Source: a virus (taxonomy: Duplodnaviria > Heunggongvirae > Uroviricota > Caudoviricetes). Taken from it: a stretch of DNA of 9,888 nucleotides. Numbering within the stretch: position 1 is the first letter of the stretch; each line of letters opens with the position of its first letter. The notes beneath the pieces were generated by a model that was given only the letters and a program-made list of their open reading frames with translations, had not been told where the DNA came from and searched no databases. The stretch is from the IMG/VR virus record IMGVR_UViG_2529292908_000017, positions 1 through 9,888 of that record; one strand, given 5' to 3'. Below, piece by piece: positions 3,581 to 9,580 of the stretch. A program made the translations under genes and the position numbers.

Positions 3581-3880
3581 ATGAAAAATAAAAATTCTGG
3601 CGTTACTGCCAGCGGCCCCGCTCGTCCTGAATTTATGAACGGCGATATTTACCGCGATAAATATGGCGGCATGGTAACGATTAAAGGCGTGGCAGAACGG
3701 CGCATCACCTACCGTCGTGAAGGCTACGAATATGATTGCGTGATGCCTGTTTATCAGTTTCGGCGTGATTTTTCTCTGGTACAGGCAGCGCCCCGCAGTA
3801 AACCAACCAGCAGGGAGAAAGCACGCGCCAATATTCAGGAAATAAAAAAGATGCTTAACGTATTCAGGGGTAAAAAATGA
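3581..3880 (+). CDS. Hypothetical protein (99 aa), translationally coupled to the primase
   Basis: ORF with GGAG upstream; its TGA stop (3878-3880) overlaps the primase ATG (3877-3879) as ATGA. Protein-like composition; family not recognised. Confidence 0.6.
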   Translation: MKNKNSGVTASGPARPEFMNGDIYRDKYGGMVTIKGVAERRITYRREGYEYDCVMPVYQFRRDFSLVQAAPRSKPTSREKARANIQEIKKMLNVFRGKK

Positions 3881-5625
3881 AACTGGCACCGAACGTAAAA
3901 AAACAGCCACGCGGAATAAAACACAAAGACACAGAGGTAATTATTTTCGCGGGTAGTGATGCCTGGTCGCACGCGAAACAATGGCAGGAGCAGGATGGCC
4001 CCGCATCCGGCGATAATGTGCCGCCTGTGTGGCTTGGGCCAAATCAGCTTGCCGAACTTGATGCACTGAAAATTGTTCCGGATGGGAAAAAGCGCGTAAG
4101 GCTGTACCAGGCCGGAGAACTGGATTTGGTGGAGACCAAAAAGATTGGTCAGAAGCTGGCGGCAGCAGATATTCAGGACGCAAATTTTTACCCCGAAGGA
4201 ATGCACGTCCAGAAGTGTGAAAACTGGCGGCGCTATCTGAATGCTGAGCGTGAAAATATTGCCGCAGGGCTTACCATGCCGGAGCAGAAAAATACGCAAC
4301 TGGCACAAATGGCAGACAGTGAGCGCGCGCAGCTGCTTGCCGAGCGCTTTGATGGCGTTTGTGTGCATCCTGAAAGTGAAATCGTTCACGTATGGCGCGG
4401 CGGGGTATGGTGTCCGGTCAGCACAATGGAGCTGAGCCGCGAAATGGTGGCGATCTATTCAGAGCACAGGGCCACTTTCAGCAAGCGCGTAATCAATAAC
4501 GCCGTGGAAGCGTTAAAAGTTATTGCCGAACCAATGGGCGAGCCGTCCGGCGATTTGCTGCCGTTCGCCAATGGTGCGCTTGACCTGAAAACGGGGGAAT
4601 TTTCCCCGCACACGCCGGAGAACTGGATCACCACGCACAACGGCATTGAGTACACGCCACCAGCACCAGGGGAGAACATCCGCGATAACGCGCCAAACTT
4701 TCATAAATGGCTTAAGCACGCAGCCGGAAAAGACCCGCGCAAGATGATGCGTATATGTGCCGCGCTGTACATGATTATGGCGAACCGGTACGACTGGCAG
4801 ATGTTTATTGAGGCCACCGGAGACGGCGGGAGCGGTAAAAGTACATTCACGCACATAGCCAGCCTTCTGGCAGGGAAACAGAACACGGTAAGCGCTGAAA
4901 TGACATCGCTTGATGATGCTGGTGGACGTGCGCAGGTTGTCGGGAGTCGTCTTATCGTCCTGGCTGACCAGCCGAAATATACAGGCGAAGGAACGGGCAT
5001 CAAGAAAATCACGGGCGGTGACCCCGTGGAAATTAACCCGAAATATGAAAAGCGTTTTACGGCGGTAATCAGGGCGGTGGTGCTGGCGACCAACAACAAC
5101 CCGATGATATTCACCGAACGGGCCGGAGGTGTGGCACGTCGTCGCGTGATTTTCCGTTTCGACAATATCGTCAGTGAGGCCGAAAAAGACAGGGAGCTAC
5201 CGGAAAAGATTGCGGCTGAAATCCCTGTGATTATCCGCCGATTACTGGCGAACTTTTCCGCCCCTGAAAAGGCACGGGCTTTACTCATTGAACAGCGTGA
5301 CGGTGATGAAGCACTGGCGATAAAGCAGCAAACGGATCCGGTTATTGAGTTTTGCCAGTTCCTGAATTTTCTGGAGGAAGCGCGCGGCCTGATGATGGGG
5401 GGCGGTGGCGATTCAGTGAAGTACACGACCAGGAACAGCCTTTACCGCGTCTATCTGGCGTTTATGGCATACGCAGGCAGGAGCAAACCGCTAAACGTAA
5501 ATGACTTTGGCAAGGCTATGAAGCCAGCCGCGAAAGTTTACGGACATGAATATATTACGCGGAAAGTTAAGGGAGTAACGCAGACTAACGCAATAACAAC
5601 AGACGATTGCGACGCGTTTTTATAA
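3877..5625 (+). CDS. Phage/plasmid primase-helicase, P4-family C-terminal domain / D5-like SF3 NTPase (satellite pri-rep type)
   Basis: 582-aa ORF with AGGGGT RBS. Walker A P-loop ATGDGGSGKST, followed by motifs typical of D5 / P4-alpha-type helicases (LIVLADQP Walker B-like, VVLATNN). Immediately followed by an iteron array. N-terminal ~300 aa not assigned. Confidence 0.88.
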   Translation: MKLAPNVKKQPRGIKHKDTEVIIFAGSDAWSHAKQWQEQDGPASGDNVPPVWLGPNQLAELDALKIVPDGKKRVRLYQAGELDLVETKKIGQKLAAADIQDANFYPEGMHVQKCENWRRYLNAERENIAAGLTMPEQKNTQLAQMADSERAQLLAERFDGVCVHPESEIVHVWRGGVWCPVSTMELSREMVAIYSEHRATFSKRVINNAVEALKVIAEPMGEPSGDLLPFANGALDLKTGEFSPHTPENWITTHNGIEYTPPAPGENIRDNAPNFHKWLKHAAGKDPRKMMRICAALYMIMANRYDWQMFIEATGDGGSGKSTFTHIASLLAGKQNTVSAEMTSLDDAGGRAQVVGSRLIVLADQPKYTGEGTGIKKITGGDPVEINPKYEKRFTAVIRAVVLATNNNPMIFTERAGGVARRRVIFRFDNIVSEAEKDRELPEKIAAEIPVIIRRLLANFSAPEKARALLIEQRDGDEALAIKQQTDPVIEFCQFLNFLEEARGLMMGGGGDSVKYTTRNSLYRVYLAFMAYAGRSKPLNVNDFGKAMKPAAKVYGHEYITRKVKGVTQTNAITTDDCDAFL

Positions 5626-5636
5626 TTTTTTGCAAT

Positions 5637-5865
5637 GTCTGTCTACCCTGTCTACCTGAGTAAAGAAAAATACATTTAATTCAGTATATTAACTTAGGTA
5701 GACAGCCTTTTTTCACTGTCTACCTACTATCTACCCTCTCTACCTGATTTTACCTGAATCAGACAGGGAGGTAGATACGGGGTAGATAGTGGATAAAAGC
5801 ACTCTACCCCGCTGAAAGCCGCGCCATTACTGGCATGAGAGCCAGTAAGGTAGATAAGGTAGACA
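5637..5865. repeat. Iteron array, putative replication origin
   Basis: About 11 copies of the heptamer GTCTACC / GGTAGA(C/T) in both orientations (e.g. 5641-5647, 5650-5656, 5697-5703, 5718-5724, 5770-5776, 5781-5787, 5849-5855, 5858-5864) around an AT-rich core (about 5657-5695), directly downstream of the primase-helicase gene. Confidence 0.65.
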
Positions 5866-5913
5866 AGGGGAGGCACAACTCAAAACTTTTTAAACGAGGG
5901 GGTAAAAATAAAA

Positions 5914-6171
5914 ATGCGCACATCAGGAAAACTTAATAATCAGAAGAAGCAGCATAACCGCGCCATTGACCTTACAGAGCACTGGCTGAGAGTGGCGATA
6001 AAAATCATCGACCGCAACACGGGGGAAGGATACGCGAAAGCACATCCCGACCTGATAAGCGCATTCATGACCACGGCGGCAGCAAACTTTGCCACGCTGA
6101 CAGAACGGGAGATTGCCGAAGCGGAACAGGTGACAACCATCAACGTTAAAACCGGAGAGCAGACAGCATGA
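5914..6171 (+). CDS. Hypothetical protein (85 aa), coupled to ssb
   Basis: ORF with GAGGGGG upstream; its stop overlaps the next ATG (ATGA at 6168-6171). No family recognised. Confidence 0.5.
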   Translation: MRTSGKLNNQKKQHNRAIDLTEHWLRVAIKIIDRNTGEGYAKAHPDLISAFMTTAAANFATLTEREIAEAEQVTTINVKTGEQTA

Positions 6172-6590
6172 CAGCACAGATAGCGGCTTACGGGCGGCTG
6201 GTGGCTGACCCGCAGTTAAAGACCACCAGCAAAGGGACACAAATGGCGATGGCGAGTATGGCGGTTCCCCTGCCATGCAGCCAGGCAGATGACGGAACGG
6301 CGACGATGTGGTTATCTGTCCTGGCGTTTGGCAGACAGGCCGACGCACTGGCAAAACACCACAAAGGCGAACTCCTGAGCGTGGCGGGTAATATGCAGGT
6401 GAGCCAGTGGACAGGCCAGAACGGCGAAACGCGGCAGGGCTGGCAGGTTATCGCAGACAGTGTAATCAGTGCCAGAACGGCGCGACCGGGCGGCAAAAAA
6501 GGTCAACAGGGGCAGGCTACTGACGCACTGAACAGGGCAAAACAACAGGCGGGAAATGATGATCCGTACGGGGATAACATACCGTTTTAA
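6168..6590 (+). CDS. ssb: Single-stranded DNA-binding protein (SSB-like OB fold with acidic C-terminal tip)
   Basis: 140 aa. N-terminal OB region aligns by eye with E. coli SSB (YGRLVADPQLK vs VGNLGQDPEVR; WLSVLAFGRQADALAKHHKGE vs [21 protein letters not shown]). Gly/Gln-rich linker and C-terminal DDPYGDNIPF resemble the SSB tail DDDIPF. Confidence 0.78.
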   Translation: MTAQIAAYGRLVADPQLKTTSKGTQMAMASMAVPLPCSQADDGTATMWLSVLAFGRQADALAKHHKGELLSVAGNMQVSQWTGQNGETRQGWQVIADSVISARTARPGGKKGQQGQATDALNRAKQQAGNDDPYGDNIPF

Positions 6591-6861: not shown

Positions 6862-7902
6862 ATGAGTGATTTATATTCGCCAGCCATGTTAATACAGGTT
6901 GTTAATGCCGAAGATATTCAATGGCAGATTAATTCTTTATTTATAAACCTGTTTTTTAAGCGAGTCGTTACATTTGAGACGCGGGATATTGCGCTTGATA
7001 TTATTGACGATCCAGACATCCCGATGGCTGCATTTTGTTCCCCTATGGTTGGTAGTAAAGTCTCACGCGATGAAGGCTACGAATCAAAAGTAATTCGCCC
7101 TGGCTATATGAAGCCAAAAAGTAGTATCGACCCAAATAAAATAGCCGTTCGTCAACCAGGCGTATCACCTGAACAATTCAATGCATATTCATCACGCAGT
7201 TTCAAAATAAAGCGAGCGTTAGTAAGACAAGCGCAGGCAATTCGTGCGCGTATTGAGTGGCTTGCTGTTCAGGCGGTTACAACGGGGAAAAATATCATTG
7301 AAGGCGATGGAATTGAACGTTATGAACTGGACTGGAATATAAAACCACAAAATATTATCACGCAGTCCGGCGGCACGGAGTGGAGCGGTAGAGATTTATC
7401 AACATTTGATCCAAACGATGACATCGAAGAGTACGCAGAAATCAGCGAAGGTACTACAAATATCATCGTAATGGGCCGCAACGTATGGAAAAAATACCGC
7501 GCCTTTAAAGCAGTAAAAGATTGCCTTGATACTCGACGGGGATCTAATTCCATTCTTGAAACGGCCCTGAAAAATCTTGGGGATTCTGTAAGCTTCAAGG
7601 GTTACGTTGGCGATGTTGCTATTGTGGTATATAGCGGACGTTATACCGACGAGGACGGCAAAGAAAAATATTTCCTTGATCCTGATTTGATGGTGCTTGG
7701 CAACACATCATTACAGGGCATCGTTGCCTACGGTGGCATTCAGGATCCTGAGTTAATCAGAATGGGGCTGACTAAAGCCGAACTTGCGCCGAAAAATTAC
7801 ATCGTACCAGGTGATCCGGCTATTGAATATGTGCAGACGCACAGCGCACCGCAACCAATACCGGCCCGCATCAATCGTTTTGTTACCGTTCGCATTGGTT
7901 AA
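6862..7902 (+). CDS. Major capsid protein, phage lambda gpE family
   Basis: 346 aa with AAGAGG RBS. Long colinear matches to remembered lambda gpE: NIITQSGGTEWSGRDLSTFDPNDDIEEYA (lambda NITQSGGTEWSKRDKSTYDPTDDIEAYA); FKAVKDCLDTRRGSNSILETALKNLGDSVSFKGYVGDVAIVVYSGRY ... MVLGNT (lambda FKAVKEKLDTRRGSNSELETAVKDLGKAVSYKGMYGDVAIVVYSGQY ... MVLGNT). Confidence 0.9.
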   Translation: MSDLYSPAMLIQVVNAEDIQWQINSLFINLFFKRVVTFETRDIALDIIDDPDIPMAAFCSPMVGSKVSRDEGYESKVIRPGYMKPKSSIDPNKIAVRQPGVSPEQFNAYSSRSFKIKRALVRQAQAIRARIEWLAVQAVTTGKNIIEGDGIERYELDWNIKPQNIITQSGGTEWSGRDLSTFDPNDDIEEYAEISEGTTNIIVMGRNVWKKYRAFKAVKDCLDTRRGSNSILETALKNLGDSVSFKGYVGDVAIVVYSGRYTDEDGKEKYFLDPDLMVLGNTSLQGIVAYGGIQDPELIRMGLTKAELAPKNYIVPGDPAIEYVQTHSAPQPIPARINRFVTVRIG

Positions 7903-7911
7903 GGGGGAGCA

Positions 7912-8253
7912 ATGGCTACTCATTACACTGAACTCATGGCTGGCACTGAAGCACTGGTTACTACGTTGGGGATATTTTCAGCTAATAAAGGGGTAATTCC
8001 TGCATTTACGCCACTGATGCAAGAAGATGCAACTGGTGCACTGGTGGTATGGGATGGAACGAGCGCAGGCAAAGCTGTTTATGTTTCCGCTGTACAAATC
8101 GATACAGCGACAAAAACGCAGGCTCAGGTTTATAAAACCGGCGTCTTAAATGTTGATGCTCTGAACTGGCCTGAGTCTGTAACACAACTATCAGCAAAAG
8201 TTGCTGCGTTTGTTGGCTCAGGTATTTCTGTTCAGCCGCTGGCACGTGTGTGA
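7912..8253 (+). CDS. Head decoration protein, phage lambda gpD family
   Basis: 113 aa with GGGGGAG RBS. Matches remembered gpD: TPLMQEDATGALVVWDGTSAGKAV (lambda [24 protein letters not shown]), YKTGVLNVDALNWPE (YKSGTFRYEDVLWPE), AAFVGSGISV (TAFAGTAISIV). Confidence 0.85.
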   Translation: MATHYTELMAGTEALVTTLGIFSANKGVIPAFTPLMQEDATGALVVWDGTSAGKAVYVSAVQIDTATKTQAQVYKTGVLNVDALNWPESVTQLSAKVAAFVGSGISVQPLARV

Positions 8254-8262
8254 GGTACGAGA

Positions 8263-8607
8263 ATGATTGAAAGAGATAGTCAGCTACGAGAGCTATTAGA
8301 TATCGATGACAAAATGAGTTTAAGCGAGCGCCTTGTTGATATGGATCAGGTAGTGGAGCTTACAACCCTTAGCCGTCGCACATTGCTAAACCTTGAGGCT
8401 CGCGGAGAGTTCCCCGAACGCGTACAGGTTACGAAAGGGCGCAAGGCATGGTATTTAAGCGAGGTTGTTGCGTGGATTAACAACATTCCGCGCGCATCAA
8501 ATTATTGCCTTGTTCCCACCCCCGAAAAACCTGATGCGGCGTTATGCCTCAAGATTGAACGCGCCAGGCGTAATGCCCTGAAAGGACGCAATAAGTTGAT
8601 TGGTTGA
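8263..8607 (+). CDS. AlpA/MerR-like helix-turn-helix DNA-binding protein (114 aa)
   Basis: GAGG RBS. Central segment VVELTTLSRRTLLNLEARGEFPERVQVTKGRKAWYLSEVVAWI fits the AlpA / excisionase-type HTH pattern, with N- and C-terminal extensions. Lies between the decoration gene and cos. Confidence 0.65.
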   Translation: MIERDSQLRELLDIDDKMSLSERLVDMDQVVELTTLSRRTLLNLEARGEFPERVQVTKGRKAWYLSEVVAWINNIPRASNYCLVPTPEKPDAALCLKIERARRNALKGRNKLIG

Positions 8608-8631: not shown

Positions 8632-8830
8632 GCGGGTCCTTTCCGGCGATCCGGCAGGCTACGGGGCGGCGACCTCGCGGTTTTTCGCTATTTATGAGCC
8701 TTTTCAGGGGGGTGGTGGTGGTTTTGTTGTTTGATCTATCTTTATGAATGAAAAGGGAAAGATGCAAGCAATACACCAACCTGAAGCAGTAATTAAGTTG
8801 GTGTATTAATGAAATCTCATCTGATGAACA
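8632..8830 (+). other. cos site 1 (+ orientation): lambda-like cosQ/cosN (cosN 8664-8675, GGGCGGCGACCT) followed by a divergent cosB-like region up to the terS start
   Basis: GCGGGTCCTTTCCGGCGATCCGGCAGGCTACG-GGGCGGCGACCT-CGCGGTTTTTCGCTATTTATGA is near-identical to the remembered lambda cos junction. Downstream lacks lambda R-site-like GAAACGACA elements but has an 11-bp perfect inverted repeat (8770-8780 / 8797-8807). Confidence 0.75.
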
Positions 8831-8837
8831 AAAAAAC

Positions 8838-9350
8838 ATGGCGAAAAGCTGCCGTGTAAGTGCGACAGCGTTCGACAAGTGGGGAGTAACTCCCGTTGAG
8901 CGTAAAGGCCGTGAGGCGTTTTATGATGTTGCCAGCGTGATAGAAAATAGGGTTAACAATGCAATTAGCCAGCTTATAAACGACAAAGGCGAGATTGACG
9001 ATGATGAACTTTTACGAGTCAGGATCAGATTACTGACAGCACAGGCAGAGGCGCAGGAACTTAAAAACGATCGCGATCGCGGTGACGTGATTGATACTGA
9101 GTTTTGCCTGTACGCGCTTTCAAAGCTGGCGAGTCAGATTTCATCAATCATGGACAGCCTCCCGCTTACTATGCAAAGGAGCTTCCCACAGATTACCCCC
9201 GCCATGCTGGATAGGCTTAAAAGGGAAGTGGTTAAAGCCTGTAATGCCAGTGCCAGAGTTGCCGACAACCTCCCACAGATACTGGCTGATTACTTGAAAG
9301 AAACAACCGGAAACGTACCGGAAAAGTTGCTACAGAAGAAAGGCGAGTAA
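8838..9350 (+). CDS. Terminase small subunit, lambda Nu1 family, with divergent N-terminal DNA-binding region
   Basis: 170 aa. C-terminal two-thirds matches remembered Nu1: LTAQAEAQELKNDRDRGDVIDTEFCLYALSKLASQISSIMDSLPLTMQRSFPQ (lambda LTRAQADAQELKNARDSAEVVETAFCTFVLSRIAGEIASILDGLPLSVQRRFPE). N-terminal ~45 aa only loosely similar. An upstream ATG at 8824 (MNKKTW...) is out of frame by 1 nt across an A7 tract. Confidence 0.85.
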   Translation: MAKSCRVSATAFDKWGVTPVERKGREAFYDVASVIENRVNNAISQLINDKGEIDDDELLRVRIRLLTAQAEAQELKNDRDRGDVIDTEFCLYALSKLASQISSIMDSLPLTMQRSFPQITPAMLDRLKREVVKACNASARVADNLPQILADYLKETTGNVPEKLLQKKGE

Positions 9351-9369
9351 CAGACGCGCAATTATTGAA

Positions 9370-9580
9370 CAAAACTGAGAAACGACATGAAAGCGTCATA
9401 AATCGCCATTTTAGATGATTACCGTGTCGTTTCTTTTTATTGTGTATCTATTTAAAAACAAATAGTTATGTTCGAGAAGTACCGACATGCTTTTTCCAGA
9501 AAATTTTTCATAAACAGATAAAAACCGCGAGGTCGCCGCCCCGTAACGGGTCCATAATTCCAGGAAGGACCCGACGACAC
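9370..9580 (-). other. cos site 2 (inverted): cosN at 9530-9541 with a lambda-like cosB (R3 / IHF-I1 / R2 / R1-like elements) on the terS-proximal side
   Basis: The reverse complement reads ...CCCGTTACG-GGGCGGCGACCT-CGCGGTTTTTATCTGTTTATGAAAAATTTTCTGG ... CGAACATAACTATTTGTTTTTAAATAGATAC ... AAAGAAACGACACGG ... CATGTCGTTTCTCAG, paralleling the remembered lambda left end (cosN, I1 IHF site CGTCATAACTTAATGTTTTTATTTAAAATACC, R2 GGAAACGACAGG, R1 CTGTCGTTTCC). No terminase gene follows in this orientation. Confidence 0.7.

Follow-up and report, generated by a model that had tools for sequence, protein, structure and literature searches.

The cosB regions of lambda-like phages follow the order R3-I1-R2-R1, in which R2 is inverted (Murialdo and Feiss, PMC9026076). 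In lambda, the same 16-bp sequence occurs in both R2 and R1, and genetic studies have identified R3 as the critical site (PMC9026076). Only three specificities have been documented, those of lambda, 21 and N15 (PMC4669245). N15 itself has only R3 plus a site called rR2 that lies inside gene 1 (PMC4669245), and its R3 was mapped by linker-scanning mutagenesis to a word at bp 50-60 (PMC9026076, PMC4669245). The Rpp-type cosB contains only an equivalent of R3, with rpp starting from about bp 102, and is thus without an R2/R1 dyad (PMC9026076). Among phage satellites, EcCICFT073 carries, by its published description, int, alpA, pri, ori, an E-like capsid gene, a D-like decoration gene, cos and a specificity gene, and it is known to have two cos sites, in which cosN is phage-like and cosB differs from that of its lambda helper (PMC6092414, PMC6739421). 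Here, we compare these systems with a perfect inverted repeat in a cos site of a similar island.

The window, by which we mean the whole stretch of DNA that was analysed (9,888 nucleotides), belongs to the EcCICFT073 type of E. coli phage satellites (PICIs), resembling EcCICFT073 in the gene content listed above and in its two cos sites. It encodes an integrase (1-1242), a primase (3877-5625), an SSB (6168-6590), a lambda E-like major capsid protein (6862-7902), a lambda D-like decoration protein (7912-8253) and an AlpA-family HTH protein (8263-8607), the gene for which lies directly upstream of cos1. Beyond the AlpA-like gene come cos1, a terS gene of the Nu1 family, a second, inverted cos (cos2) and a small ORF. 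The island has no terL, and in this it differs, as a satellite, from the N15/Monarch phages considered below. An iteron-rich segment at about 5634-5868, downstream of the primase gene, is dense in direct and inverted copies of CTGTCTACC / GGTAGACAG and most likely serves the island as a replication origin of the iteron type; within these iterons, at 5695-5705 / 5716-5726, lies the only perfect 11-bp inverted repeat in the window other than the one in cos1.

Relatives of the island were gathered from IMG/VR and by exact-protein look-ups, and the sample comprised 80 IMG/VR loci, three E. coli chromosomal loci and eight loci of the Enterobacter/Citrobacter type. There were 52 unique haplotypes over 240 bp around the start of terS, and 19 E. 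coli haplotypes for the interval 8744-8811. The module made up of cos1 and terS is present in 766 of 5426 complete E. coli genomes (about 14%), many of them O157:H7. Close relatives are found at tRNA-Pro/yejM, next to icd/phoQ in O157:H7, and inside prophage late genes. One relative of the last kind, in E. coli J-8 (L003), is inserted in a prophage portal gene, and those on contigs of the Enterobacter/Citrobacter type (L086-L093) are inserted in the major capsid gene E; such insertions match the helper-embedded PICIs described previously (PMC10111431).

The cohesive end of cos1, GGGCGGCGACCT, occupies 8664-8675 on the plus strand and is identical to the left end of lambda, with flanks that match lambda identically through bp 33. 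Its twelve bases are bp 1-12 of the packaged island DNA; as a correction to the preliminary description, the sequence begins at 8664. The distance from the cohesive end to the ATG of terS is constant at 146 bp in the relatives. Several other loci, L054, L055, L077 and L082 among them, have different cohesive ends (GGGCGGAAGGCG, GGGCGTCAGGCG, GGGCGGCTGACG, GGGCGGCAGACG) at the position of 8664-8675, with cosB (R3 and R2) and the DNA-binding domain of TerS unchanged. This looks like an exchange of cosN to match the large terminases of different helpers, in which the pair formed by the satellite's TerS and cosB stayed in place.

At the position of R3 lies the G/T-rich block GGTGGTGGTTT (8714-8724, plus strand; bp 51-61), a putative primary TerS site. 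Taking the extents of R3 from PMC9026076 and PMC4669245, the block coincides in position with R3 of N15 (bp 50-60, GGTTGTTGTTT) and R3 of L084 (bp 51-61), a lambdoid prophage of E. coli strain 144, and is identical to them at 9/11 positions. It is unchanged in nearly all of about 83-84 related loci. To the right of the block, a search of 8725-8770 for an IHF site (I1) between R3 and R2 gave no match to WATCAANNNNTTR with one mismatch or fewer. A perfect IHF consensus (AATCAACTTATTG) does occur on the minus strand at 8589-8601, about 65-75 bp left of the cos1 nick site and inside the end of the AlpA-like gene.

The inverted repeat itself lies between the R3 block and terS. The repeat finder bore out the preliminary description in full on this point: AATACACCAAC (8770-8780) and GTTGGTGTATT (8797-8807) are 11 nt long, 100% complementary and separated by a 16-nt spacer. 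They form the sole inverted repeat of at least 9 nt between cosN and terS. A script scan for perfect 11-bp inverted repeats with spacers of 3-40 nt found two in the window, against a mean of 0.09 per window in dinucleotide-preserving shuffles, of which 21/300 contained one or more; scaled to the 135-bp cosB interval, the shuffle expectation is about 0.001. The left arm (8770-8781, minus strand; top strand ATACACCAACC) reads GGTTGGTGTAT on the bottom strand and falls at bp 108-118. The right arm (AGTTGGTGTATT; 8796-8807, plus strand) falls at about bp 133-144, with the word AGTTGGTGTAT at bp 133-143, and also holds a Shine-Dalgarno-like GGTG 5 nt before ATG 8809. The left arm is thus inverted with respect to both the R3 block and the right arm, and the two arms are 27 bp apart from centre to centre.

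The repeat had been suggested to lie where lambda would have its R-site repeats, and position, orientation and sequence homology all agree with that placement. The same repeat finder identified the R2/R1 pair as the strongest cosB inverted repeat in lambda (109-133 / 142-166) and in phage 21 (107-133 / 139-165), and the R2/R1 pair is likewise the strongest in L084 and in the window's own cos2. The perfect dyad of cos1 therefore fits the canonical picture of a complex cosB. Its left arm begins within 1-2 bp of the place expected from lambda and phage 21, where the R2/R1 repeats have left arms beginning at bp 109 and bp 107, respectively. Because the dyad sits where lambda-like phages keep R2 and R1, it is probably an ordinary recognition element and not a new regulatory device; we favour reading it as R2 and R1 of a complex cosB, of the lambda-like kind, in the satellite's own cos1, as somewhat better than an even bet.

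The closest comparison is with L084. Its TerS has a recognition helix (ISVQAFDKW) identical to that of N15 gp1, and its cosB contains R3 GGTTGTTGTTT at bp 51-61, an inverted R2 ATACAACAACC at bp 108-118 and R1 GGTTGTTGTAT at bp 188-198, followed by the terS ATG at bp 229. This order, R3, inverted R2 and then R1, makes it a complex cosB of N15 specificity as described for the Monarch group. The left arm of the island has the same position (bp 108-118) and orientation as the L084 R2 and is identical to it at 10/11 bases; R3 and R2 coincide in base position in the two cos regions, and the R words lie one base apart (GGTTGTTGT in L084, GGTTGGTGT in the island). In a MAFFT alignment the two regions are colinear and the right arm is placed on the L084 R1. 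The TerS proteins of the N15/Monarch type are 44-49% identical to that of the island and share the wHTH region FDKWGV..PVE..GRE. On the other hand, the island has the recognition helix SATAFDKW where N15/Monarch phages have SVQAFDKW, its R3 is GGTGGTGGTTT, and its R2 and R1 are much closer together than those of L084 (a spacer of 16 nt versus 69 nt, and 27 bp versus 80 bp from centre to centre).

The resemblance to lambda is one of layout. An identical cosN is followed by a block at the position of R3 (about bp 50-62), an inverted R2 from about bp 108, and an R2/R1 pair that forms the main inverted repeat just before a terS of the Nu1 family. Unlike lambda, however, the island has an unrelated R word (GGTTGGTGTAT versus CGTTTCCTTTCT), a spacing between R2 and R1 of 27 bp instead of about 46 bp, an R1 that abuts the start codon, no IHF consensus between R3 and R2, and a TerS only 38% identical to Nu1. 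Phage 21 is similar in having its R2/R1 inverted repeat before gene 1, but it has a different R word and a TerS about 34% identical to that of the island. Taken as a complex cosB, then, the island region offers a lambda-like cosN, R3 at bp 51-61, an inverted R2, a copy of R1 (11/11 in the clade of the window) and a terS of the Nu1 family, and it departs from that pattern in having no recognisable I1 (IHF) site between R3 and R2.

Three of these comparisons count against the R2/R1 reading. The geometry of R2 and R1 is not conserved, whether measured against lambda or L084; I1 has no counterpart; and the R3 block matches the island's own R2 word at 7/11 positions only, in sequence that is G/T-rich, so it is uncertain that one protein reads both.

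The product expected to read these sites is encoded by terS (8809-9350, plus strand), which matches the Pfam profile Phage_Nu1 with E=3e-23 and up to position 162/164. Island TerS aligns full-length with the TerS proteins of lambda and N15, and its N-terminus aligns with their wHTH and DNA-binding domains; the recognition helix differs from that of N15 at two residues. Identity is 44% to N15 gp1, 49% to L084 TerS, 38% to lambda Nu1 and about 34% to phage 21 TerS. A PDB sequence search with island TerS matched neither a Nu1 DNA-binding domain nor an RppC chain, and a contig scan with the TerS protein yielded no confirmed relative. An Rpp-type cos1, of the kind described for EcCICFT073, in which cos1 is followed by rpp (Rpp has 135-153 aa, with a TerS-like DNA-binding domain and no C-terminus for binding TerL), was rejected: the gene in the related islands encodes a full-length, 180-aa TerS that follows the Nu1 profile to position 162/164, and RppC was not among the PDB matches. 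By sequence, the module would stand next to the N15/Monarch specificity and not that of lambda or Rpp, with an R word and a recognition helix that appear close to, yet distinct from, those of N15/Monarch.

In the window itself terS is interrupted. The run of A residues at 8830-8836 is A7, versus A8 in every close relative but one, and this 1-nt deletion splits the gene into a stub of 16 codons (8809-8859) and an ORF of 170 aa (8838-9350). The annotated terS of the relatives encodes 180 aa and starts at the ATG equivalent to 8809, which is therefore the ancestral start, and the right arm ends 1 nt before it. The preliminary description had put the dyad about 30 bp upstream of terS, and this distance holds for the truncated ORF (ATG 8838) but not for the ancestral gene. 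In the 170-aa ORF the 10 N-terminal residues, which are part of helix 1 of the wHTH, are missing. The A7 deletion is shared by one other IMG/VR locus (L026), and 170-aa forms occur in the protein database (P0037, P0071). The deletion could be a real slip, inactivating or phase-variable, or else a sequencing error in a homopolymer. With terS frameshifted, the packaging system may be impaired in this particular island.

The related loci treat the two arms of the dyad very differently. The core of the left arm, ACACCAACCTGAA (8773-8785), and the R3 block are constant in 52/52 unique haplotypes, and indels between cosN and terS are nearly absent from them, the exception being L014, which is short of 3 bases in the G run that directly precedes the R3 block. 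Within the E. coli group, residues 1-45 of TerS, including the recognition helix SATAFDKW and the wing, are near-constant. In TerS relatives at about 58% identity, GGTGGTGGTGT still stands as the R3 block, and R2 has a positional counterpart in the word AATACACCCAC or AATATAGCCAC. The right arm, by contrast, is among the most variable stretches, with at least six forms that include GTTGTGGTATC, GTGGGGATATT and GTTGGGATATT. The perfect 11/11 dyad occurs in 4/19 haplotypes of 8744-8811, all of them in the window's clade, and the remaining E. coli clades have 7-8/11 arm matches in register. In the Enterobacter/Citrobacter-type loci both the right arm and the short ORF that spans the dyad in the window are absent, and a strong Shine-Dalgarno sequence is found instead. 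Conservation of the dyad in related cos regions, the lack of which the preliminary description had counted among the grounds for refuting its proposal, thus holds only by half: the left arm is conserved, and perfect symmetry is confined to one clade.

Perhaps, then, function resides in the left arm (R2) alone. The right arm would be either a relic in decay or the ribosome-binding region of terS, and the symmetry itself would do nothing. The perfect match would then be a neutral by-product, arising for example by hairpin-templated (quasi-palindrome) correction of an imperfect repeat. The free variation of the right arm, set against a constant TerS DNA-binding domain, R3 and R2, favours this explanation, as do the relatives with TerS at about 58% identity, in which a strong Shine-Dalgarno sequence takes the place of the arm. 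The variation of the arm and its loss from distant relatives also speak against the R2/R1 reading, so R1 may add nothing. Moreover, only 2-3 substitutions separate the perfect right arm from the 8/11 versions, and it is chiefly in O157:H7, an oversampled lineage, that the perfect dyad is common. What is hard to reconcile with a useless right arm is that all E. coli clades hold 7-8/11 matches in register: complementarity of the arms in register is 73.6%, well above the 28-43% of slid controls, and this value fits two diverging copies of one DNA word. In addition, R1 is identical to R2 in lambda and L084 (PMC9026076), suggesting that an exact copy of R1 can be selected. We regard a function limited to R2 as rather unlikely, at perhaps one chance in a handful. 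The conservation pattern indicates functional R3 and R2 sites, with R1 as an accessory at best, and lambda genetics agrees as far as the critical role of R3 is concerned (PMC9026076).

An HTH gene immediately upstream, together with the fact that perfect palindromes are typical of operators, raises the question of whether the dyad controls transcription of terS, as an operator for a dimeric transcription factor that could be the AlpA-like protein (8263-8607) or a regulator from the helper phage. The relatives argue otherwise. In L001 and L002, islands of the O157:H7 and S792 types, an unrelated 137-aa hypothetical gene without an HTH replaces the AlpA-like gene upstream of cos1, and the dyad is identical there; it goes with terS and not with the upstream gene. 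On this ground the AlpA-like protein was rejected as the ligand. In more general terms, an operator is difficult to square with a distance of 27 bp between centres and a 16-nt spacer, which are atypical for a simple dimer operator, with symmetry that is not conserved, or with the absence of any promoter-like site near the dyad. This function seems to us very improbable. The dyad was also rejected as a promoter or terminator in its own right, since a scan found neither and the sole terminators reported were the cosN palindromes. In L001 (9968-10000) and L002, a GC-rich hairpin followed by a T run (GGCCGGAGAAATCCGGCTTTTTTTT) stands after the 137-aa gene and directly before cosQ/cosN, an arrangement that calls for some explanation of terS transcription in those islands.

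The dyad could also act at the level of RNA, and the preliminary description offered an attenuator controlling terS translation as its second suggestion. It had correctly noted that a short ORF from ATG 8744 spans the dyad; this mini-ORF (8744-8809, plus strand) has 21 codons, its translation is MNEKGKMQAIHQPEAVIKLVY*, and its stop codon, TAA at 8807-8809, overlaps the ancestral ATG of terS (TAATG). In one version of such a device, the mRNA hairpin would hide GGUG before AUG 8809, and ribosomes on the leader ORF would melt the hairpin and finish at UAAUG, so that translation of terS is coupled to that of the leader. The hairpin of the window's clade, at -14.5 kcal/mol, is strong enough to invite this idea, and the left arm contains an anti-Shine-Dalgarno-like CACC that faces the GGTG of the right arm. 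In 19/19 E. coli haplotypes the leader frame is open and ends, in every case, in a stop that overlaps the ATG of terS, the junction reading TAATG, TGATG or ATGA.

The overlap is forced, because terS begins with ATGAAA, and the frame would survive 10-20 random substitutions with P 0.47-0.65. There is no Shine-Dalgarno sequence upstream of ATG 8744, and the variable sites fall 9/8/10 on codon positions 1/2/3, without any third-position bias and with nearly all changes non-synonymous. These codon-position and synonymous/non-synonymous counts speak against the mini-ORF as a coding gene.

The structural evidence also speaks against a device shared by the family. The hairpin is worth only -2.9 to -7.4 kcal/mol in the other clades, its 111-nt context has a z-score of -1.5, and RNAalifold found no consensus structure among ten representatives. 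None of the 11 named pairs shows a compensatory change: 4 are constant, and the other 7 are lost outright in some lineages. A conserved RNA structure was therefore rejected, and the attenuator is unsupported as a feature of the family; considering also that hairpin and ORF are both missing from distant relatives, we judge translational coupling of this kind to be improbable. An effect of the hairpin on terS translation may still exist in the clade of the window, where it would act through the GGTG in the right arm, although none of the results points to a device under selection.

The second cos site differs in kind. It is inverted (9345-9545, minus strand, by alignment to lambda bp 1-200; located also as 9508-9545), lies downstream of terS, and is of lambda type throughout, with an identical cohesive end. 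It has an R2/R1 dyad of its own (GAAACGACA; 9369-9387 / 9425-9443) and, at the position of I1, an IHF-like site within 1 mismatch of WATCAANNNNTTR (9456-9468). Only part of the relatives have cos2. These features suggest that helpers of lambda specificity package from cos2, in the opposite direction.

With the dyad of cos1 read as R2/R1, packaging of the island could proceed as follows. TerS of the island, with its wHTH of the N15/Monarch type, would have two docking sites, R3 (8714-8724) and the left arm of the dyad as inverted R2. The docked protein would position the large terminase of the helper (TerL) to nick cosN (8664-8675), and the nick would lead to rightward packaging into helper capsids. 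The right arm would be a copy of R1 in an accessory role, identical to R2 in the clade of the window, as it is in lambda and L084, and degraded in the majority of the other clades. Position, orientation, sequence homology and the pattern of conservation were observed directly in these loci; binding of the R sites by TerS and any contribution of R1 would be what those observations predict from sequence. The proposal that the dyad is the recognition element for the divergent N-terminus of TerS is accordingly supported in part, by position, orientation and homology, with the qualification that only one of its two arms is conserved.

A more ambitious reading joins several of these elements. Since lambda, 21 and N15 are the only specificities on record, that of the island may be a further one, borne by a satellite. 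In its fullest form, this would be a fourth lambda-like specificity, derived from that of N15/Monarch and owned by the satellite (GGTTGGTGT at R2/R1 and GGTGGTGG at R3), combined with feedback on terS. In the clade of the window, the compact and perfect R2/R1 palindrome does overlap the ribosome-binding site of terS. If the feedback part is true, expression of terS is controlled in turn by TerS sitting on R1, or else by the hairpin in the mRNA along with the leader ORF that overlaps it. If the specificity part is true, the island recruits the TerL of its helper to its own DNA, and cos2 serves helpers of lambda specificity. We consider the combination decidedly improbable.

Identification of the dyad as R2/R1 does not reveal a new mechanism; its use lies in mapping sites for studies of PICI packaging. 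The predicted map, with R3 at 8714-8724, R2 at 8771-8781 and R1 at 8796-8806, can be tested directly, and sites so arranged would let PICIs of this kind divert the terminase of their helper.
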